Part shown: positions 46,330 to 52,742 of the stretch, in pieces
Layout of the letters: every line of letters starts with the position of its first letter
Position numbering within the stretch: position 1 is the stretch's first letter
Origin: a phage
DNA: 64,000 bases
Strand: one strand, 5' to 3'
Sequence record: OR896157.1
Notes under the pieces: model-generated
Database searches by the model: none
What the model was told of the DNA's origin: nothing
What the model saw: the letters and a program-made list of their open reading frames with translations, nothing else
Translations under genes and position numbers: made by a program

Positions 46330-46585
46330 TTATTGTTGTATTTATATGCAACAACACCCCGTCCGAAGACAGGGCGTAAGAATCGACAGCACCACCTACT
46401 GGCAGATGGCCTGCAGAAGTTCATTCCCAGCGACTCGGAGGCATCAGTCTCGCCCCTGGGAATATAGCGTCGTGGAGGTGTCACTTTGCAGGTGATTAAC
46501 AACCGGTGGCTCCGTAGAACCGTTGCGGCAAGGGCTAACCTTCTCTTCTAACACGACGTCTTCATACGAGAGCTGCAACTCTCTG
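46330..46585 (-). ncRNA. GC-rich structured non-coding island (candidate ncRNA)
   Basis: ~250 nt far more GC-rich than flanks; minus-strand CCCUGUC-UUCG-GACGGGG hairpin at 46353-46370; reading frames through it give R/P/C/G-rich junk. Confidence 0.3.
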
Positions 46586-46587
46586 TA

Positions 46588-46788
46588 TTAGCTTAGATGC
46601 TTAACCGCATCGCAATCGTAAACAAAATAACTCGTTCCATATGGGTCAGAGATATTATTGAAATAATCATAAACTTTCTGTTCAGCTTCTCCATCAGAGT
46701 CAGCATCTACTGTGAACAGTTCTTCTTTAATTCTTCCGCCGTCTTCCATGTATTCTGCGATTTTATAACGTACTTGAACTAAACGCAT
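46588..46788 (-). CDS. hypothetical acidic protein
   Basis: 66-aa ORF. Confidence 0.4.
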   Translation of the reverse strand: MRLVQVRYKIAEYMEDGGRIKEELFTVDADSDGEAEQKVYDYFNNISDPYGTSYFVYDCDAVKHLS

Positions 46789-46803
46789 TGTGTTTTCCTC
46801 ATT

Positions 46804-46879
46804 TGGTGCCGGTTAACGGATTCGAACCGCTGACCCTCTCATTACAAATGAGCTGCTCTACCAACTGAGCTAAACCGGC
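46804..46879 (-). tRNA. tRNA-Thr (anticodon UGU)
   Basis: manual fold: acceptor GCCGGUU/AACCGGC, D GCUC..GAGC, anticodon loop UUUGUAA, T-loop GGUUCGAAUCC, CCA encoded. Confidence 0.8.
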
Positions 46880-46880
46880 T

Positions 46881-46965
46881 TGGTGCATCAAGAGGGATTC
46901 GAACCCTCAATCCTTTCGGCGGGGCATTTTAAGTGCCCTGTGTATACCAGTTCCACCATTGATGC
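46881..46965 (-). tRNA. tRNA-Leu (anticodon UAA), class II
   Basis: acceptor GCAUCAA/UUGAUGC, anticodon loop CUUAAAA, 13-nt variable arm, T-arm GAGGG-UUCGAAU-CCCUC. Confidence 0.8.
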
Positions 46966-46971
46966 GAAATT

Positions 46972-47056
46972 TGGAGCTAGGAGTGAGATTCGAACTCACG
47001 AAGGGATACCCGGCGGATTTGCAATCCGCTGCCTTTGGCCACTCAGCAACCCTAGC
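46972..47056 (-). tRNA. tRNA with class-II architecture and anticodon GCA (Cys-type)
   Basis: acceptor GCUAGGG/UCCUAGC, anticodon stem-loop GCGGA-UUGCAAA-UCCGC, 13-nt variable arm CGGGUAUCCCUUC; assignment tentative. Confidence 0.5.
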
Positions 47057-47060
47057 AAAT

Positions 47061-47138
47061 TGGTCGAGGTAGAGGGATTCGAACCCGTCGACCTGTGGAT
47101 TAGAAGTCCACTGCTCTATCCAGCTGAGCTATACCCCG
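47061..47138 (-). tRNA. tRNA-Arg (anticodon UCU)
   Basis: acceptor CGGGGUA/UACCUCG, D GCUC..GAGC, anticodon loop CUUCUAA; T-stem has only 3 clean pairs. Confidence 0.7.
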
Positions 47139-47142
47139 AGTG

Positions 47143-47268
47143 TGTTCAGACAGGACTCGAACCTGTAAGCATGTTCTTGCGGCGTTTTACCACCGTCGTC
47201 AGCATATGATTCAATATGCGAACTCAAAAGGTGTTGGACCCCTTGTCTACCAATTCCAGCACTGAACA
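47143..47268 (-). ncRNA. 126-nt tRNA-like stable RNA candidate (possibly rnaC/rnaD-type)
   Basis: 7-bp acceptor-like helix UGUUCAG/CUGAACA and canonical T-arm ACAGG-UUCGAGU-CCUGU enclose ~93 nt with D-loop-like AAUUGGUAGA but no canonical anticodon arm. Confidence 0.4.
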
Positions 47269-47278
47269 ACTTTATTTA

Positions 47279-47503
47279 TTACATATCAACTTGAGTAAAC
47301 CAGTTGATTTTGAAATACTCATCAAAATGAAGAGCAGGTTCAACTTGAGTATCTTCCTCAAGAAGAATTAAATTCTTTCTTACAATCGGGTCAAGATGAG
47401 TTGTGTTTAAGCAGCTATCATGCCAATATGTAAGAACTCGATTTGATTCAGTATCAACGAGATAACGAACATTCATATCAGGATGTCGGTACAGATTAAT
47501 CAT
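47279..47503 (-). CDS. hypothetical protein
   Basis: 74-aa ORF. Confidence 0.45.
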   Translation of the reverse strand: MINLYRHPDMNVRYLVDTESNRVLTYWHDSCLNTTHLDPIVRKNLILLEEDTQVEPALHFDEYFKINWFTQVDM

Positions 47504-47506
47504 AAT

Positions 47507-47956
47507 CTATTTCTCTTGAAGCATTTTGCGTAAACGATAGAGCTGATTACAAAATTCCTTTTCAGTCAAAACTGTTTCAGAGATTTTGTTCTTGCCCATA
47601 CTGTGGGTTAATGTTGCGTTACGAGTAGCAATCAATGCTTTTTGGAATCCAGTGTTTTGAGCAAGTGCGTCATAAGCTCCAGTTAAAAGATTCTGGTATG
47701 CTTCAGATGCTCGATGAATAGGAACACCCTTCCAATAAAGTGTTTGAGTAGGCCACCAACGCTTCTTCTTACCTTTGAACTTTGCTGCCTTTCCAACCAA
47801 TGTGCAAACATGAGCTTGCATTTCAGGGTTAGAAAATTTGAGGGATTGTAAAAATCCCTCCATTGAAGCACATTCTACACCATCATAAACGAAAGCATGT
47901 GGTGCAAAGTTACTTAAAGCACAAGAAGGATATGAACTTCCAGAGCCAATGTCCAT
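47507..47956 (-). CDS. NADAR/YbiA-like protein (DUF1768), candidate ADP-ribose glycohydrolase
   Basis: 149-aa ORF; SNFAPHAFVYDGVECASMEGFLQSLKF resembles remembered E. coli YbiA core (SNFA..DG..SEHYFQAQKF); downstream W...ALxAT pattern also shared. Confidence 0.5.
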   Translation of the reverse strand: MDIGSGSSYPSCALSNFAPHAFVYDGVECASMEGFLQSLKFSNPEMQAHVCTLVGKAAKFKGKKKRWWPTQTLYWKGVPIHRASEAYQNLLTGAYDALAQNTGFQKALIATRNATLTHSMGKNKISETVLTEKEFCNQLYRLRKMLQEK

Positions 47957-48187
47957 TTAATTACCGTGAGATATTCTAGAAGGTTTCTTACCAAAATAAT
48001 ATTCATATGAGCCATCTAAACGACCTGCTTTAGTGCGGCAATATGAATCCCATTTCTTATAATGCCGCCATTCATCATTGTATCTTGGATGACGGTCAGC
48101 GATTAAAATCTCTAATGGCCAACCAGGCGCAAAGGAACGGAGCCGTTCGACCTTTCTAATGTATCTTTTCTTTAAGATTTTCTTCAT
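47957..48187 (-). CDS. hypothetical basic protein
   Basis: 76-aa ORF. Confidence 0.45.
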   Translation of the reverse strand: MKKILKKRYIRKVERLRSFAPGWPLEILIADRHPRYNDEWRHYKKWDSYCRTKAGRLDGSYEYYFGKKPSRISHGN

Positions 48188-48405
48188 ATAGATTCCGACA
48201 TTACGTGAGTAGTTCTCTTTCTGATTGTAAATTGAGTTAATTCATCAACTTCACCACAACGCCAAGCGTCATCTTCAGTTTCAAAACCAAGAGCCTCGAA
48301 TAAGTTGCCTAAACGCCAACCTTCGTCAAACTCGGGGTCTCCTGAAAAATAGTAATAGTAATCGCCAGTTACTAAATCTTGAATTACAAAATCAAACTTT
48401 TCCAT
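48184..48405 (-). CDS. hypothetical acidic protein
   Basis: 73-aa ORF. Confidence 0.45.
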   Translation of the reverse strand: MEKFDFVIQDLVTGDYYYYFSGDPEFDEGWRLGNLFEALGFETEDDAWRCGEVDELTQFTIRKRTTHVMSESI

Positions 48406-48902
48406 CAGATACTTACCACAGTAATAGCTTCAGGAGCTTTAGGAATAACGATATCTTCTTCAATGTAGAAGAGCTTAAATGTTTCAGCTACACGCATAAA
48501 GTCAATATCATAACCGACTGGAGTTCCAATCAATTCTTGAATCTTATCCATCACTTTATACTGAACTTGATAGAAATCTTCAAGACGAGCATCGAATTCA
48601 TCTTCAGTATAATCACCTTCTGGGATTACAAAGCCAAGCACTTCTGAACAGAACTCTGGAGTGATTTCTTCATTTTCAACACAGTATTCAAAGAAAGCAT
48701 CACCGGAATAATCTTCATTACCCATTCCATTAGGGTCTGAATTATCAGATGCAAAACATTTAGCAACGGCACACCAACCTGAAACGTGTCTAGCATTTAC
48801 AGCATAAATCACATTCTCTTGATAATCATCGCCATCGTTTTCCCATGATACACATGATACTGCATAACCTTTAGGGATAGTTTGACCAAAGCGGAGTTCC
48901 AT
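48405..48902 (-). CDS. hypothetical acidic protein
   Basis: 165-aa ORF. Confidence 0.5.
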   Translation of the reverse strand: MELRFGQTIPKGYAVSCVSWENDGDDYQENVIYAVNARHVSGWCAVAKCFASDNSDPNGMGNEDYSGDAFFEYCVENEEITPEFCSEVLGFVIPEGDYTEDEFDARLEDFYQVQYKVMDKIQELIGTPVGYDIDFMRVAETFKLFYIEEDIVIPKAPEAITVVSI

Positions 48903-48912
48903 AATATTTCCT

Positions 48913-49287
48913 TCAATTAAATGGTGGAAGAGATTTCTTATATAAATCTATCATCATTCGCCATTTAGCAATTACTTTAGAATACGGAGATTTATGAGAG
49001 AATTGCGAAATGTCAGAATAATCAAGTTCAGGCAGTGGAGTTAAATGACCCATCAGCTCACGAGGAAATTGATGAAAACAATTCATCAAATCTTTGTAAA
49101 CATAATCAAGTAAGTCTTTAACATCAAAGAATTGGGTATTTAGTCCTTCTTTGGAATAACGATATTTCAAAAATTTCCAATGACCGGACTTAGAATCTTG
49201 AGTAAACGCGTAATCACTATGAAGCATGATATCGCGAACAAAATCTTCAGAAAAGAAGATGGAGTGAGTGCAACCATAATAAATCAT
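48913..49287 (-). CDS. hypothetical protein (124 aa)
   Basis: track ORF trimmed to ATG 49287 (GAGGA SD) so it no longer overlaps tRNA-Met. Confidence 0.5.
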   Translation of the reverse strand: MIYYGCTHSIFFSEDFVRDIMLHSDYAFTQDSKSGHWKFLKYRYSKEGLNTQFFDVKDLLDYVYKDLMNCFHQFPRELMGHLTPLPELDYSDISQFSHKSPYSKVIAKWRMMIDLYKKSLPPFN

Positions 49288-49305
49288 AATATTTTCCTCA
49301 GAATT

Positions 49306-49382
49306 TGGTGACCCCAGCAGGACTCGAACCTGCAACCTAGCGATTATGAGTCGCGTGCTCTAACCAATTGAGCTATAGGGCC
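49306..49382 (-). tRNA. tRNA-Met (anticodon CAU), elongator-type
   Basis: acceptor GGCCCUA/UGGGGUC, D GCUC..GAGC, anticodon loop CUCAUAA, T-arm GCAGG-UUCGAGU-CCUGC, CCA encoded. Confidence 0.8.
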
Positions 49383-49409
49383 AAAGTCCTCCTAAGAGGA
49401 CCGAGGGTA

Positions 49410-49634
49410 TTATTCAACCATGAAATCTGCTACTTCATCAAAGTCGTTATTGATGACAACAGTAAATGGCAGAGCTTCATCACTTGTTTTGATAGTCAGC
49501 TTAACAAAACCATCAACAGTTTCAACCAAACCAACGATTTTATCTGAACGCACTACAGCACGAGCTACGTCAACAATTTTACCAGTCATTGCAAATGTAG
49601 CGATTTGGTTAACTTCAACAACGATACGTTTCAT
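49410..49634 (-). CDS. hypothetical protein
   Basis: 74-aa ORF. Confidence 0.45.
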   Translation of the reverse strand: MKRIVVEVNQIATFAMTGKIVDVARAVVRSDKIVGLVETVDGFVKLTIKTSDEALPFTVVINNDFDEVADFMVE

Positions 49635-49695
49635 TCTTTTTCCTTAGTGGTTTTGATAAGGTAATTATATACTGAATTTTTAAAGCGTTTTCACT

Positions 49696-49729
49696 AAAAA
49701 GCCCCGTAACAGATTTCTCTGCTCGGGGC
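49696..49729 (-). terminator. intrinsic terminator at the distal end of the tRNA array
   Basis: minus-strand GCCCCG...CGGGGC stem followed by UUUUUAGUG. Confidence 0.55.
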
Positions 49730-49735
49730 GTCATT

Positions 49736-49810
49736 TGGTGGGAAGTGTTGGAATCGAACCAACCTCTCATGCTCTTCAGGCACGCGCTAATCCATCTCAG
49801 CTAACTTCCC
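49736..49810 (-). tRNA. tRNA-Phe (anticodon GAA)
   Basis: acceptor GGGAAGU/ACUUCCC, anticodon stem-loop CGUGC-CUGAAGA-GCAUG, T-arm GUUGG-UUCGAUU-CCAAC. Confidence 0.65.
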
Positions 49811-49813
49811 GAT

Positions 49814-49890
49814 TGGTCGGTGCGGCAGGATTTGAACCTGCGACCCCTTGGTCCCAAACCAAGTGCTCTACCAAACTGAGCTACACACCG
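49814..49890 (-). tRNA. tRNA-Pro (anticodon UGG)
   Basis: acceptor CGGUGUG/CGCACCG, D GCUC..GAGC, anticodon loop UUUGGGA, T-arm GCAGG-UUCAAAU-CCUGC. Confidence 0.85.
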
Positions 49891-49896
49891 TTAATT

Positions 49897-49971
49897 TGGA
49901 GCATCCAGAGAGAATCGAACTCTCATCTACTGGGTGGAAGCCAGTCATAATAGCCGCTATACGATGGATGC
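49897..49971 (-). tRNA. tRNA-Gly (anticodon UCC)
   Basis: acceptor GCAUCCA/UGGAUGC, anticodon stem-loop ACUGG-CUUCCAC-CCAGU, T-arm GAGAG-UUCGAUU-CUCUC. Confidence 0.8.
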
Positions 49972-49978
49972 AATTTGT

Positions 49979-50070
49979 ACGGAACGCCTGGATTCGAACC
50001 AGGTTAAATTGCGATTGACGTCACAATTTATCTTATGAAGGCCATGCCTCTACCATATCCGAACGTTCCG
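49979..50070 (-). tRNA. atypical tRNA-like gene / possible pseudo-tRNA with CAU-type anticodon loop (UUCAUAA) and a 9-bp hairpin insertion
   Basis: perfect 7-bp acceptor CGGAACG/CGUUCCG and T-arm CCUGG-UUCGAAU-CCAGG, but weak D and anticodon stems and a 26-nt perfect hairpin before the T-arm. Confidence 0.35.
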
Positions 50071-50121
50071 TCAAAAACGCTACTCGGCTTACGGCTTAGG
50101 CAATTCCTCGAACCGATAATT

Positions 50122-50195
50122 TGGCAGGCCCCGTAGGAATCGAACCCACGTCACTGAGGTTGGAGCTCAGGATAATACCACTATACGAGAGACCT
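50122..50195 (-). tRNA. tRNA-Trp (anticodon CCA)
   Basis: acceptor AGGUCUC/GGGGCCU (two G-U), anticodon stem-loop CUGAG-CUCCAAC-CUCAG, T-loop UUCGAUU. Confidence 0.7.
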
Positions 50196-50199
50196 AAAA

Positions 50200-50293
50200 T
50201 GGAGGAAGCGGTGGGATTCGAACCCACGGACCGTATCACTACGGCCTCCGCATTTCAAGTGCGGTGCAATTAACCAGACTCTGCCACGCTTCC
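50200..50293 (-). tRNA. tRNA-Ser (anticodon UGA), class II
   Basis: acceptor GGAAGCG/CGCUUCC, anticodon stem-loop CCGCA-CUUGAAA-UGCGG, long variable arm, T-arm GUGGG-UUCGAAU-CCCAC. Confidence 0.85.
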
Positions 50294-50297
50294 GAAT

Positions 50298-50373
50298 TGG
50301 GGTGACCGATGGGAGTTGAACCCATGACTACGAGAATCACAATCTCGAGTTCTACCAACTGAACTACGGCCAC
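50298..50373 (-). tRNA. tRNA-His (anticodon GUG)
   Basis: acceptor GUGGCCG/CGGUCAC, D GUUC..GAAC, anticodon stem-loop CGAGA-UUGUGAU-UCUCG. Confidence 0.85.
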
Positions 50374-50587
50374 ATCAATATTCACTCCAGCAATCATGAT
50401 GCCTTCACACGAAATTGAGAGAAGAGTGATCAGTTCAACCCTTGTAGACGCGTCAAGTAAATATTGATGTGACAGCTTATTTAAGAAGAGTGAGAGTCCC
50501 AGTCTTGTACGGAGTAACCATTTATGCATTGGCAGCTATCGCGCGGTTCGCACTTCCGATAAATGGACTTACCGTTACACTCTAATT

Positions 50588-50662
50588 TGGCTGGACTATC
50601 TGGATTCGAACCAGAGATACCGGAGTCAAAGGCCGGTGACTTAACCGCTTGTCTATAGTCCA
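50588..50662 (-). tRNA. tRNA-Gln (anticodon UUG)
   Basis: acceptor UGGACUA/UAGUCCA, anticodon loop CUUUGAC, T-arm UCUGG-UUCGAAU-CCAGA. Confidence 0.8.
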
Positions 50663-50668
50663 ATTGTT

Positions 50669-50745
50669 TGGAGGCGGGTGATGGACTCGAACCATCGCGT
50701 AACGGGATATGAACCCGTCATTCTACCAACTGAAGTTAACCCGCA
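50669..50745 (-). tRNA. tRNA-Met (anticodon CAU), initiator-like features
   Basis: anticodon stem ACGGG/CCCGU with three consecutive G-C pairs next to loop UUCAUAU; position 1:72 mismatched; T-arm GAUGG-UUCGAGU-CCAUC. Confidence 0.65.
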
Positions 50746-50898
50746 TCTATCCGGATTCTTGAAGTACTAACAAGTAGCTTGATGTAGAACACGCTAAAGA
50801 TATAATCTTACGAATATAGAGCTTATTCCGTGGGAACAAACAGCTTCGTCCTCGGCATTATCTTACAGGACTCTGACTTATCTTCAAGAACTGCCTCG

Positions 50899-51363
50899 TT
50901 ATTTTATGAACTTATTTATGAATCGTCTAGCTTGAGTATGACTGACTCCAAGTTCATTTGCAAATTTTACTAATGCACCACGTTTTGTGAAATCAATAGA
51001 ATTATATAAATCTATTCTTAAAGCAATTTCATCTGCAGTGAATTTATGAGCATGATTTTCTGATATTTTTATTTTTGTTTCATCAGAATGATTATGTCCA
51101 GTAAAACCAGTAGATACGATTCTTCCATTTGCGCCAGCGTCTTTAGCATTTTGCGCATTAGTTGCGCAATAAATGTTATCCAAAGAATATGGTCCAACAT
51201 CTCCTTTACGACACATACAATAATTATCTGAGGCTCTACCGCGCAAATGATATTTGCCAGTAGCTTTCCACCATGATAGCCATTCATCAAATGTCAGTTT
51301 AAATTCAATACCTCTTGATTTAGCATGCACTTTTTGCATGCGATACTTTTCATAATCTTTCAT
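50899..51363 (-). CDS. putative freestanding homing endonuclease-like protein (nuclease-like N-half, HTH-like C-half) inside the tRNA array
   Basis: 154-aa ORF; N-terminal GIEFKLTFDEW...NYCMCRKGDVGPYSLDNIYCATNAQNAKD, C-terminal helix-turn-helix-like; T4 carries segB at the analogous place. Confidence 0.4.
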   Translation of the reverse strand: MKDYEKYRMQKVHAKSRGIEFKLTFDEWLSWWKATGKYHLRGRASDNYCMCRKGDVGPYSLDNIYCATNAQNAKDAGANGRIVSTGFTGHNHSDETKIKISENHAHKFTADEIALRIDLYNSIDFTKRGALVKFANELGVSHTQARRFINKFIK

Positions 51364-51377
51364 ATTACTCTCATATT

Positions 51378-51454
51378 TGGCAGTGCTGACGGGTTTCGAA
51401 CCCGCGATCTCTCCCGTGACAGGGGAGTGTCTTGACCATCTCGACTACAGCACT
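51378..51454 (-). tRNA. tRNA-Asp (anticodon GUC)
   Basis: acceptor AGUGCUG/CAGCACU, anticodon stem-loop CUCCC-CUGUCAC-GGGAG, T-loop UUCGAAA. Confidence 0.85.
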
Positions 51455-51699
51455 ATAAATTTACTTTCGTGAGTATGGGATTACCCTCAAGCCTTCCGGA
51501 AAGCTGAATAGGCGTTATTGGCTCTCATATACCCGTGCACAGATATAATCTTCATTAACGCAATAACTTCATCAATATACTCCGAAAGTAAACTTTCGGC
51601 GCCGTATTTAATTTTGACTGTGTAGTTATCGTTGAGGGAACTCACAGACAGGGATTAAAGTGCCGACGACTTATCAGAACGTCTTCTGACTTCTACATT

Positions 51700-51785
51700 T
51701 GGCGGGCCGTGCAGGTATCGAACCTGCCTAGTCATTTCTGACACGGATTAACAGTCCGTCGCTTACCCTCTCAGCCAACGACCCA
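51700..51785 (-). tRNA. tRNA with anticodon GUU (Asn-type) and a 15-nt variable arm
   Basis: acceptor GGGUCGU/ACGGCCC, anticodon stem-loop ACGGA-CUGUUAA-UCCGU, extra hairpin GUCA-GAAA-UGAC, T-arm GCAGG-UUCGAUA-CCUGC. Confidence 0.55.
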
Positions 51786-51789
51786 AATT

Positions 51790-51864
51790 TGGTTCTCCGT
51801 AAGAGAATTGAACTCTTCTTTCCGACGTGAAAGGCCGGCGTCCTAACCGATAGACGAACGGAGA
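51790..51864 (-). tRNA. tRNA-Glu (anticodon UUC)
   Basis: acceptor UCUCCGU/ACGGAGA, anticodon stem-loop CCGGC-CUUUCAC-GUCGG, T-arm AAGAG-UUCAAUU-CUCUU. Confidence 0.85.
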
Positions 51865-51865
51865 T

Positions 51866-51943
51866 TGGTAGGACGTGAGGGAGTTGAACCCATCGACATT
51901 CCGATTAAAAGTCGGATGCTCTAACCAACTGAGCTAACGTCCT
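51866..51943 (-). tRNA. tRNA-Lys (anticodon UUU)
   Basis: acceptor AGGACGU/ACGUCCU, D GCUC..GAGC, anticodon stem-loop UCCGA-CUUUUAA-UCGGA; T-stem only 3 clean pairs. Confidence 0.75.
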
Positions 51944-51981
51944 GTAGATATTTATAATAACAAAAATATCTTTAAGCAAAT

Positions 51982-52057
51982 TGGTGGGAATAACTGGGCT
52001 CGAACCAGTGACCTAACGATTATCGGTCGTTTGCTCTACCAACTGAGCTATATTCCC
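51982..52057 (-). tRNA. tRNA-Ile (anticodon GAU)
   Basis: acceptor GGGAAUA/UAUUCCC, D GCUC..GAGC, anticodon stem-loop AACGA-CCGAUAA-UCGUU (C at position 33). Confidence 0.7.
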
Positions 52058-52063
52058 TGAATT

Positions 52064-52151
52064 TGGTGGGGAGTGATGGAGTCGAACCACCCGAGTCGCA
52101 ATGACAACAGATTTACAGTCTGCACCGCTACCTCTACGGAATTAACTCCCC
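52064..52151 (-). tRNA. tRNA-Tyr (anticodon GUA), class II
   Basis: acceptor GGGGAGU/ACUCCCC, anticodon stem-loop GCAGA-CUGUAAA-UCUGU, long variable arm; 5 nt between acceptor and D-stem. Confidence 0.75.
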
Positions 52152-52156
52152 GAAAT

Positions 52157-52516
52157 TTATTTAAGAACTGTTGAGTTCATCGATTTAACCAAGAAAACTT
52201 GGTGCGGTGAACGAAGTGAACCTTCAATAGTGCGATGTTCTGGAAAATTGGTTGAAGTCTGAAAACCAGCTACACGGTAACCTTGCTCAGTCCATCCTAA
52301 AAGGATACCAACCATACAGCCAGAATATTTTCCGCTTTTATCCAAAGCTACAATATCACCAGGAGCAATTTCATTACCCATTGAATCAGGCTTAATCCAT
52401 TGTGGAGTAACCAGTTCTATAGGTATATTTATACCGCTTGAAAAGCTGTAATATTCGTCTGAACGTAAGCCCTGAATGCTTTTAAAGACTTTATGCCAAG
52501 TTTTGCTGATGCTCAT
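52157..52516 (-). CDS. hypothetical protein
   Basis: 119-aa ORF directly upstream of the tRNA array. Confidence 0.5.
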   Translation of the reverse strand: MSISKTWHKVFKSIQGLRSDEYYSFSSGINIPIELVTPQWIKPDSMGNEIAPGDIVALDKSGKYSGCMVGILLGWTEQGYRVAGFQTSTNFPEHRTIEGSLRSPHQVFLVKSMNSTVLK

Positions 52517-52742
52517 AATGTTCTCTCGCAGTGTTTTGGTGAATCAACGATAATTCATCGAAGATTGACTTCATTGCATTTTTCACAAAAATTTTTTCAG
52601 AAGGCTCCATCGACGTATTGTTGATGATTCTCGCCATTCGTTCTTTAAGCTTCTTTTTCCGATTCCGGACCGTCTCCTTGGAAGCGGTCCTCATGTGAGC
52701 AAGATTAGTCATCATGTTCCGTCGATAGATTAATAATATCAA
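52491..52742 (-). CDS. hypothetical basic protein
   Basis: 83-aa ORF. Confidence 0.45.
   Translation of the reverse strand: MILLIYRRNMMTNLAHMRTASKETVRNRKKKLKERMARIINNTSMEPSEKIFVKNAMKSIFDELSLIHQNTAREHYEHQQNLA

Follow-up and report, generated by a model that had tools for sequence, protein, structure and literature searches.

The transfer RNA (tRNA) cluster of bacteriophage T4 holds eight tRNA genes together with rnaC, rnaD, and segB. The rnaC product is a stable RNA of about 140 nt that accumulates in infection, as shown for T4 only (PMC9697503), and the roles of both RNAC and RNAD are still unknown (PMC3014915, PMC9697503). Larger sets are found in Enterobacter phage PG7 (genus Karamvirus, T4-type) with 20 tRNAs and in phage ECLFM1 with 19, the latter described in a 2024 paper as "lacking one tRNA-Met" (PMC10815064). 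In an unrelated phage family coliphage T5 carries 23 tRNAs, including those for fMet, Lys, and Tyr. The present analysis concerns the expanded tRNA array of a phage DNA stretch of 64,000 nucleotides (sequence record OR896157.1, analysed at its full length and called here the window), the larger block of which occupies positions 49306–52151 and the smaller block positions 46804–47138.

The region is 97% identical to PG7 and 92–97% identical to approximately 25 other Karamvirus genomes. PG7 (KJ101592, 72107–77542) agrees with the window in all 20 loci and in their order and strand, but it lacks the 154-aa open reading frame (ORF) of the window's 50899–51363, which is carried by phage KMB20, and has an ORF between the CAT tRNA and the Phe tRNA, PG7_155, which the window does not have. 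Jiaodavirus, Winklervirus, Moonvirus, and Kagamiyamavirus carry comparable arrays that resemble it in gene order, and the Kanagawavirus phages fetched contain a smaller set of 6–9 tRNAs. Because the array is annotated in the GenBank record of PG7 and was counted in the literature, the expanded array has already been described, and the Karamvirus array of 19–20 tRNAs is known, annotated, and in itself not new. The value of the present check lies in the correction of annotations, in a quantitative test of codon and amino acid usage that favours compensation, and in the conservation of the oddities; the parts worth keeping are the corrected CAU loci, the conserved rule-breaking tRNAs, above all a tRNA-Ile with C33, and several unannotated structured RNAs.

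T4 has the same neighbourhood as the window (genes 1, 3, 57A, 57B, trna.4, and 30.3-like ORFs), and all eight of its anticodons (Arg-TCT, Gln-TTG, Gly-TCC, Ile-CAT, Leu-TAA, Pro-TGG, Ser-TGA, and Thr-TGT) are found in the window, where 11 extra tRNAs (Tyr, Ile-GAT, Lys, Glu, Asn, Asp, Met, His, Trp, Phe, and Cys) are added. In place of rnaC, rnaD, and segB of T4 the window contains an rnaC homolog at 80% identity, an rnaD-like RNA, and a probably mobile, putatively endonuclease-type ORF inside the cluster, which is not of the GIY-YIG type, unlike SegB. The two small RNAs lie between tRNAs in the window but after tRNA-Arg in T4, and CCA is encoded in all window tRNAs, whereas several T4 tRNAs are without it. 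With the T5 cluster, which belongs to a virulent coliphage, the window has in common a large, near-complete set that includes an initiator-type tRNA. We consider it probable, taking identity and function as one joint statement, that the region represents the cluster of tRNA and small stable RNA genes in a T4-type Enterobacter phage, a Karamvirus resembling PG7, and that its tRNA set would supply tRNAs matched to the demand of an AT-rich phage in a host of about 55% GC.

In the window ARAGORN called 19 tRNA genes, all on the minus strand and all inside 46804–47138 or 49306–52057, and the Rfam family RF00005 also gave 19 matches over the gathering score of 29 bits (39–72 bits, E-values 1e-4 to 1e-13). 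The two programs disagree at two loci, since tRNA-Tyr(GTA) at 52067–52151 was detected by Rfam only and a 95-nt "tRNA-Met" at 49977–50071 by ARAGORN only. Taken together, they support 19 tRNA genes as solid, all on the minus strand, of which 15 lie in 49306–52151 beside the one dubious locus and exactly four (Arg-TCT, Cys-GCA, Leu-TAA, and Thr-TGT) in 46804–47138. The first-pass annotation, which was made by a model from the letters alone and had counted about 16 genes plus four, or roughly 20 loci in two blocks against the eight tRNAs of T4, was thus borne out by automated prediction, and the array is confirmed as real. The larger block extends from the 3' end of a CAT tRNA (49306) to the 5' end of tRNA-Tyr (52151). 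The 19 tRNAs cover 18 amino acids, with Ala and Val missing; acceptor stem and T loop are intact and CCA is encoded in 19/19, and tRNAs within runs are spaced by 1–10 nt. A permissive Rfam scan of 46400–52600 (E ≤ 5) returned tRNA matches and chance-level matches only, leaving the non-coding gaps without a match. The tRNA genes are as follows.

52064–52151, minus strand: tRNA-Tyr(GTA), class II, A73, CCA encoded; Rfam 39.1 bits, missed by ARAGORN.
51982–52057, minus strand: tRNA-Ile(GAT) with C33, anticodon loop CCGATAA; ARAGORN, Rfam 71.6 bits.
51866–51943, minus strand: tRNA-Lys(TTT), 78 nt, bulged T stem; ARAGORN, Rfam.
51790–51864, minus strand: tRNA-Glu(TTC); ARAGORN, Rfam.
51700–51784, minus strand: tRNA-Asn(GTT), 85 nt, class-II-like; ARAGORN, Rfam.
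51378–51454, minus strand: tRNA-Asp(GTC); ARAGORN, Rfam.
50669–50745, minus strand: initiator-like tRNA-Met(CAT); ARAGORN, Rfam 44.1 bits.
50588–50662, minus strand: tRNA-Gln(TTG); ARAGORN, Rfam.
50298–50373, minus strand: tRNA-His(GTG) without encoded G-1; ARAGORN, Rfam.
50200–50293, minus strand: tRNA-Ser(TGA), class II, U73; ARAGORN, Rfam.
50122–50195, minus strand: tRNA-Trp(CCA); ARAGORN, Rfam.
49897–49971, minus strand: tRNA-Gly(TCC); ARAGORN, Rfam.
49814–49890, minus strand: tRNA-Pro(TGG); ARAGORN, Rfam.
49736–49810, minus strand: tRNA-Phe(GAA); ARAGORN, Rfam.
49306–49382, minus strand: tRNA of the Ile2 type (CAT anticodon); ARAGORN, Rfam 68.7 bits.
47061–47138, minus strand: tRNA-Arg(TCT), 78 nt, bulged T stem; ARAGORN, Rfam.
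46972–47056, minus strand: tRNA-Cys(GCA), 85 nt, class II body, U73; ARAGORN, Rfam 48 bits.
46881–46965, minus strand: tRNA-Leu(TAA); ARAGORN, Rfam.
46804–46879, minus strand: tRNA-Thr(TGT); ARAGORN, Rfam.

By analogy with T4, each tRNA run would yield a precursor transcript spanning several genes, from which host RNase P and 3' processing enzymes would release the single tRNAs. Directly after the CCA of nearly every tRNA in 46800–52151 there stands A-A-T/A (CCAAAT or CCAATT). T4 and the other Tevenvirinae genera that were examined share this trinucleotide, which may signal 3' processing.

The demand for these tRNAs was estimated from 92 mechanically called phage ORFs (16,414 codons), which were compared with a host proxy of 9,655 codons composed of Citrobacter and Yokenella loci, since the contig scan returned no Enterobacter. 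The GC content of the window is 39.4%, and that of E. cloacae is about 54.8% (PMC10815064). Of the 19 codons that the phage tRNAs match by Watson-Crick pairing, 17 are more frequent in the phage ORFs than in the proxy, and the mean log2 ratio is +0.48 for cognate codons versus −0.74 for those left unread by any phage tRNA (Mann-Whitney p = 0.0037). The same agreement is seen at the level of amino acids: each of the 11 enriched in the phage (K, Y, C, F, H, N, E, I, W, D, and M) has a phage tRNA, and for amino acids depleted in the phage only isoacceptors reading A-ending codons are carried. Codons readable by the phage tRNAs make up 71% of the phage total and 58% of the host-proxy total. Compensation of codon usage, which the first-pass annotation had named as one possible role of large phage sets, thus passed this comparison, and the codon test supports compensation in both codons and amino acids. 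The array would consist of two layers, one being the T4 set of eight, in which four- and six-codon families would be served by a U34 isoacceptor for A-ending codons, and the other comprising one tRNA for each amino acid that the phage uses more than the host. Replacement of host tRNAs cleaved or depleted in infection is a plausible secondary benefit.

Several points weigh against the supply of matched tRNAs as the whole explanation. Four enriched codons have no phage tRNA, namely, GTA (2.4x), CGA (2.35x), GCT (1.9x), and CTT (1.85x); the proxy of about 9,600 codons comes from Citrobacter and Yokenella and not from Enterobacter, and the ORFs were mechanically called. Moreover, deviations occur at normally important positions (C33 in tRNA-Ile, tRNA-His without G-1, the D region of tRNA-Tyr, and the T stems of tRNA-Lys and tRNA-Arg), so that full function of the array tRNAs is assumed, and codon compensation does not explain these deviations.

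Three loci with a CAU (CAT) anticodon triplet are present, as had been reported, and in the initial reading all three were tRNA-Met genes, one for an elongator, one for an initiator, and the third decayed. This reading agrees with ARAGORN, which labelled all three loci tRNA-Met, and with the PG7 record, which lists three tRNA-Met genes; however, the sequence of two of the three loci makes it highly improbable. The first of them, at 49306–49382, shares 65/77 positions (84%) with E. coli ileX, 59/77 with metT, and 57 (74%) with T4 tRNA-Ile. The locus agrees with ileX in its entire anticodon arm, GCGACTCATAATCGC, and possesses the pairs C4:G69 and C5:G68 as in ileX, where metT has U4:A69 and A5:U68; positions 4:69 and 5:68 are major identity elements for E. 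coli TilS (PMC11947777). The acceptor stem (GGCCCT...GGGTCA) and the CAU anticodon are common to this locus and T4 tRNA-Ile, and its ortholog is annotated as tRNA-Ile in the record of phage fGh-Ecl04. Judged by sequence, the locus is thus a tRNA of the Ile2 (lysidine) type, the counterpart of T4 tRNA-Ile, and the elongator assignment does not hold. Its C34 is expected to be lysidinylated by host TilS, after which lysidine-AU would read AUA. The tRNAscan-based records are in line with this, as they give tRNA-Ile at this locus and omit the third CAU locus, and ECLFM1 "lacks one tRNA-Met".

The third locus, for which a degenerate CAU tRNA had been proposed, lies within a full-length homolog of a T4 small RNA.

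49978–50116, minus strand: homolog of T4 rnaC (species 1 stable RNA), the 3' 95 nt of which are mis-called "tRNA-Met" by ARAGORN and in the PG7 record.

The homolog was aligned with T4 rnaC from end to end with 80% identity over 148 nt, and it occurs in 741 phage records, in which the T4 records annotate the match as rnaC. At 49977–50071 no RF00005 match was obtained even at E ≤ 5. Neither the CAT triplet nor an anticodon stem is conserved: the corresponding position in homologs reads TTA, TGA, CTT, and similar. The internal helix that ARAGORN used as "acceptor" is 87.5% paired without compensatory change, and one of its pairs is broken in 4/6 sequences, while the pairing of the 5' end with the 3' end of the rnaC homolog is 100% kept with one compensatory change, although six sequences constitute modest evidence. 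On this alignment 49977–50071 is the 3' part of the rnaC homolog and not a decayed tRNA-Met. In this way two labels propagated in public records, both reading tRNA-Met in PG7, are corrected to an Ile2-type tRNA and an rnaC fragment.

The remaining CAU locus, at 50669–50745, does show the two initiator features for which it had been singled out, namely, the mismatch at 1:72 and an anticodon stem closed by three G-C pairs. There is no Watson-Crick pair at 1:72 (U1xC72), which is the same in the Jiaoda-, Kanagawa-, Winkler-, Moon-, and Kagamiyamavirus copies, and the anticodon stem ACGGG/CCCGT contains three G:C pairs (G29–31:C39–41), with GGG/CCC kept in six genera. The acceptor strand G2-C3-G4-G5-G6 is as in E. 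coli fMet. Across the six genera these initiator hallmarks are kept, and the T stem and the 7:66 pair vary by compensatory substitutions. Nevertheless, overall identity to E. coli fMet (metZWV) is only 68%, and the gene departs from it in U73 instead of A73, U38 instead of A38 (loop TTCATAT), U32 instead of C32, and a C11.A24 mismatch in the D stem (ACTT/GAAT) instead of A11:U24; two features expected of initiators, a purine11:pyrimidine24 pair and the A73 discriminator of E. coli, are therefore absent. Owing to these departures the gene is named initiator-like and not a proven initiator, though from its hallmarks it would be expected to serve as one.

Apart from the CAU loci, C33 and weak T-stems had been remarked in several tRNAs, with manual-folding error and genuine oddity offered as explanations. 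Both features are real, C33 in tRNA-Ile(GAU) and the bulged T stem (GA-N-GGG/CCCTC) in tRNA-Lys and tRNA-Arg, and since the odd features are conserved across genera they are genuine, and folding error is dismissed. The loop CCGATAA of tRNA-Ile(GAU) was found in every Tevenvirinae copy checked (four genera), with anticodon stems differing by compensatory changes. U33 is described as almost invariant in elongator tRNAs (PMC5041475). When IMG/VR was scanned with the D-arm anchor GCTCAGTTGGTAGAGC, the C33 form was obtained in 112 stretches, corresponding to 78 distinct tRNAs in 67 clusters with 37 kinds of anticodon stem, and the U33 form with the same D arm was about as numerous (119 stretches); the remaining tRNA species of these 230 viral loci have U33 in approximately 98% of 1,746 distinct sequences. 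In a metagenome sample C33 was present in 36/99 distinct tRNAs, and the loci, at a median of 8.5 tRNAs each, were tRNA arrays, but the D-arm anchor itself selects phage-like tRNA arrays and the sample is therefore not a clean cellular control. In the literature searched no report of C33 tRNA-Ile in phages was found, which is no proof of novelty.

Other tRNAs of the array break different rules. HisRS normally needs G-1; tRNA-His at 50298–50373 has T at −1 (50374) opposite C73, and hence G-1 is not encoded. The same T is seen in 9/9 distinct Tevenvirinae His tRNA sequences, and in viral loci 21 of 45 distinct sequences are without G-1, the non-G base always being T. Class II tRNAs in bacteria are normally limited to Leu, Ser, and Tyr. 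In the window tRNA-Asn has an extra-arm hairpin, GTCA-GAAA-TGAC, the stem of which is kept by compensatory changes in phages CHI14 and Merlin, together with G73 and an anticodon arm identical to E. coli asnT, and tRNA-Cys has a class II body with the extra arm GGG-TAT-CCC. The latter shares 62/85 positions (73%) with E. coli tyrT versus 50 with cysT, has the GCA anticodon and U73 as in cysT, and is confined to Karamvirus among the sampled genomes. We infer that the class-II Asn and Cys tRNAs may have arisen from a Tyr-like class-II gene by changes of anticodon and discriminator and that they would be charged according to anticodon. Reports of such Asn or Cys tRNAs in phages were not found in the literature either, with the same reservation as to novelty. 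The tRNA-Tyr has a non-canonical D region (5-nt 8/9 linker, 3-bp D stem) and is annotated as tRNA-Tyr in PG7 and as "Pseudo-GTA" in the Pet-CM3-4 record.

These deviations bring in the possibility that the array is kept mainly as a counter-defence, with phage tRNAs that the tRNA nucleases of hosts or competitors cannot cut or host modification enzymes do not see, so that translation would be sustained while host tRNAs are destroyed. The general hypothesis has been set out for phage tRNAs (PMC10264068), and there are precedents in T5, in which tRNA-Lys rescues infection against PARIS (PMC11464382) and tRNA-Tyr rescues infection against a retron (PMC11555353). Candidate nucleases include PARIS AriB, PrrC/RloC, VapC, retron PtuAB, colicins, and contact-dependent inhibition (CDI) toxins. 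The altered anticodon stem of T5 tRNA-Lys (PMC11464382) has a likeness in the window, where the tRNA-Lys stem (TCCGA/TCGGA) has C40-G41 at the AriB cut site and E. coli lysT has C40-A41, though the anti-PARIS and anti-retron roles are experimental in T5 and only inferred for the window. In E. coli tRNA-Ile(GAU) a CDI toxin cuts between C32 and U33 (PMC11724271), where the phage tRNA has C33, and in tests on tRNA-fMet C33 is reported to prevent E. coli TsaBCDE from forming t6A37 (PMC8887486). At position 38 the initiator-like tRNA carries U, in contrast to the A38 of E. coli fMet. Enteric VapC cuts initiator tRNA in the anticodon stem-loop. On the other hand, the anticodon arms of tRNA-Asn and the Ile2-type tRNA are identical to those of the host, that of tRNA-Tyr differs only at the closing 27:43 pair, the anticodon loop of tRNA-Lys is unchanged, and the choice of anticodons fits codon demand well. 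Counter-defence as the main reason for the array is consequently regarded as a tentative possibility; it and codon compensation are not mutually exclusive, and nuclease evasion is plausible in being compatible with the anticodon-arm differences from host tRNAs.

A bolder version, which we treat as speculative and rather doubtful, would see in the array a set of deliberately host-orthogonal tRNAs and undescribed structured RNAs that goes beyond codon matching. In its clearest instance, the C33 of tRNA-Ile(GAU) could be an adaptive device that blocks t6A37 modification by the host or 32/33 cleavage by a tRNA nuclease, and the same strategy may take in tRNA-His without G-1, the class-II Asn and Cys tRNAs, the initiator-like tRNA with U38, and the altered anticodon stem of tRNA-Lys. 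If the C33 tRNA-Ile and the other rule-breakers are indeed adaptive, they would provide testable handles on phage translation under host tRNA-targeting defences.

The same oddities could also be read as decay, a sizeable part of the array then being non-functional baggage (pseudo-tRNAs and remnants of recombination or homing endonucleases) kept by linkage. The array is indeed mosaic, with segments 73–100% identical among close relatives and ORFs that come and go; tRNA-Tyr is marked "Pseudo" in one record, rnaC is largely deleted in fGh-Ecl04, and tRNA-His without G-1, tRNA-Ile with C33, and the bulged T stems of tRNA-Lys and tRNA-Arg might be taken in the same sense. However, the tRNAs are kept across genera with compensatory stem changes, and the odd features themselves are retained while adjoining stems change in this way; acceptor stem, T loop, and CCA are intact in the complete set, and in one of the unannotated RNAs described below (element B) nearly all pairs are kept as well. 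Decay on this scale is therefore considered unlikely, and tRNA supply matched to phage demand is retained as the preferred explanation.

Besides the rnaC homolog, three structured RNAs accompany the tRNAs of the cluster.

51598–51698, minus strand: rnaD-like RNA, putative homolog of T4 species 2 RNA, directly after tRNA-Asn, recognized in multiple alignment with T4 rnaD.
50746–50898, minus strand: element B, structured non-coding RNA, unannotated, ending 0–4 nt before the initiator-like tRNA.
47139–47270, minus strand: element F, tRNA-Leu-like RNA, ending 4 nt upstream of tRNA-Arg.

When the cluster gaps were aligned pairwise with the two T4 RNAs, only the rnaC homolog stood out, and the rnaD-like RNA obtained a low score in pairwise local alignment with T4 rnaD; the probable kinship of the latter two is visible in multiple alignment only, where over the full length the blocks AATGnAGAA, TAAGTCGTCGG, TCCCTG, and ACGGCGC appear in the same order and the 5' hairpin is altered by compensatory substitutions. 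Element B is 120–155 nt long, usually stands immediately 5' of the initiator-like tRNA-Met, and was found in 202 phage records, none of which annotates it as RNA. An alignment was made of copies from seven Tevenvirinae genera. Among 14 distinct sequences the share of paired pair cells is 98.9%, compared with 33–46% in slid controls, and 8 pairs are changed on both sides; as the alignment was fitted to the model, the figure of 98.9% leans towards structure. Element B has no Rfam match, and a search with its covariance model over T4, the other gaps, and the rest of the window revealed no paralog. For that reason the idea that element B, rnaD, and one gap form one family was dropped in spite of their shared (G/A)TAAGTC motif. 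The rnaC and element B of the window (within 50122–50898) are 96–100% identical to PG7 and only 73–79% identical to other Karamvirus genomes (KMB20 and Pet-CM3-4), and element B is also 96.7% identical to Jiaodavirus JD18; being closer to JD18 than to some Karamvirus, it points to recombination between genera within the tRNA cluster.

Element F combines tRNA-Leu-like acceptor, D, and T arms with an extra region of about 60 nt; the loop at the anticodon position has 5 nt and is not conserved, and CCA is absent. The element occurs in 144 phage records, mainly of Klebsiella (Jiaodavirus-type) and Enterobacter (Karamvirus) phages, again never annotated as RNA, and gave no RF00005 match at 47139–47270 even at E ≤ 5. 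As a decoding tRNA-Leu(CAA) it was rejected, because the "anticodon" loop has 5 nt and is not conserved in JD18. Elements B and F may be new families of tRNA-cluster stable RNAs beside rnaC and rnaD, and all four are candidates for a function that has been unexplained in T4 for decades.

The remaining features of the cluster are protein-coding, spacer, or putative transcription elements.

50899–51363, minus strand: 154-aa ORF between tRNA-Asp and element B.
50374–50587, minus strand: non-coding spacer of 214 nt between tRNA-Gln and tRNA-His, the 3' ~100 nt of which are conserved in Jiaodavirus and the 5' half only in some Karamvirus.
49696–49729, minus strand: intrinsic-terminator-like hairpin followed by UUUUU, after tRNA-Phe, closing the Tyr-to-Phe run.
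51949–51956, minus strand: T4-type late-promoter motif TATAAATA, 6 nt upstream of tRNA-Lys.

The 154-aa ORF is present in the window and KMB20 and absent at the same site in PG7, fGh-Ecl04, and Pet-CM3-4, a polymorphism that supports its mobility. It matches PHROG 16521 (unknown function) and, weakly, a PHROG HNH family over N-terminal residues 5–35 (E = 5e-4), and searches of Pfam, NCBIfam, and PDB with its sequence were negative. The ORF is probably a mobile gene resembling homing endonucleases, comparable to segB in the T4 cluster. Small ORFs are also interspersed in the cluster, which appears to be a hotspot for mobile ORFs; among the other inserts in relatives is a GIY-YIG gene between tRNA-Ser and tRNA-His in fGh-Ecl04.

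With regard to transcription signals, a scan for sigma-70 promoters found fewer promoter-like sites than in shuffles and is hence uninformative, and the sigma-70/terminator scan missed the hairpin after tRNA-Phe because of its loop length; the fold energy of this hairpin is −21 kcal/mol (z = −5.15). The late-promoter motif occurs in 7 copies in the window versus 3.5 expected by chance and is thus suggestive only. A further non-coding stretch of the array is located at 51455–51597. In the 5' half of the Gln-His spacer there is a long hairpin with a GTAAGTC internal loop, and the motif (G/A)TAAG(T/C)C recurs in rnaC, rnaD, element B, and this spacer.

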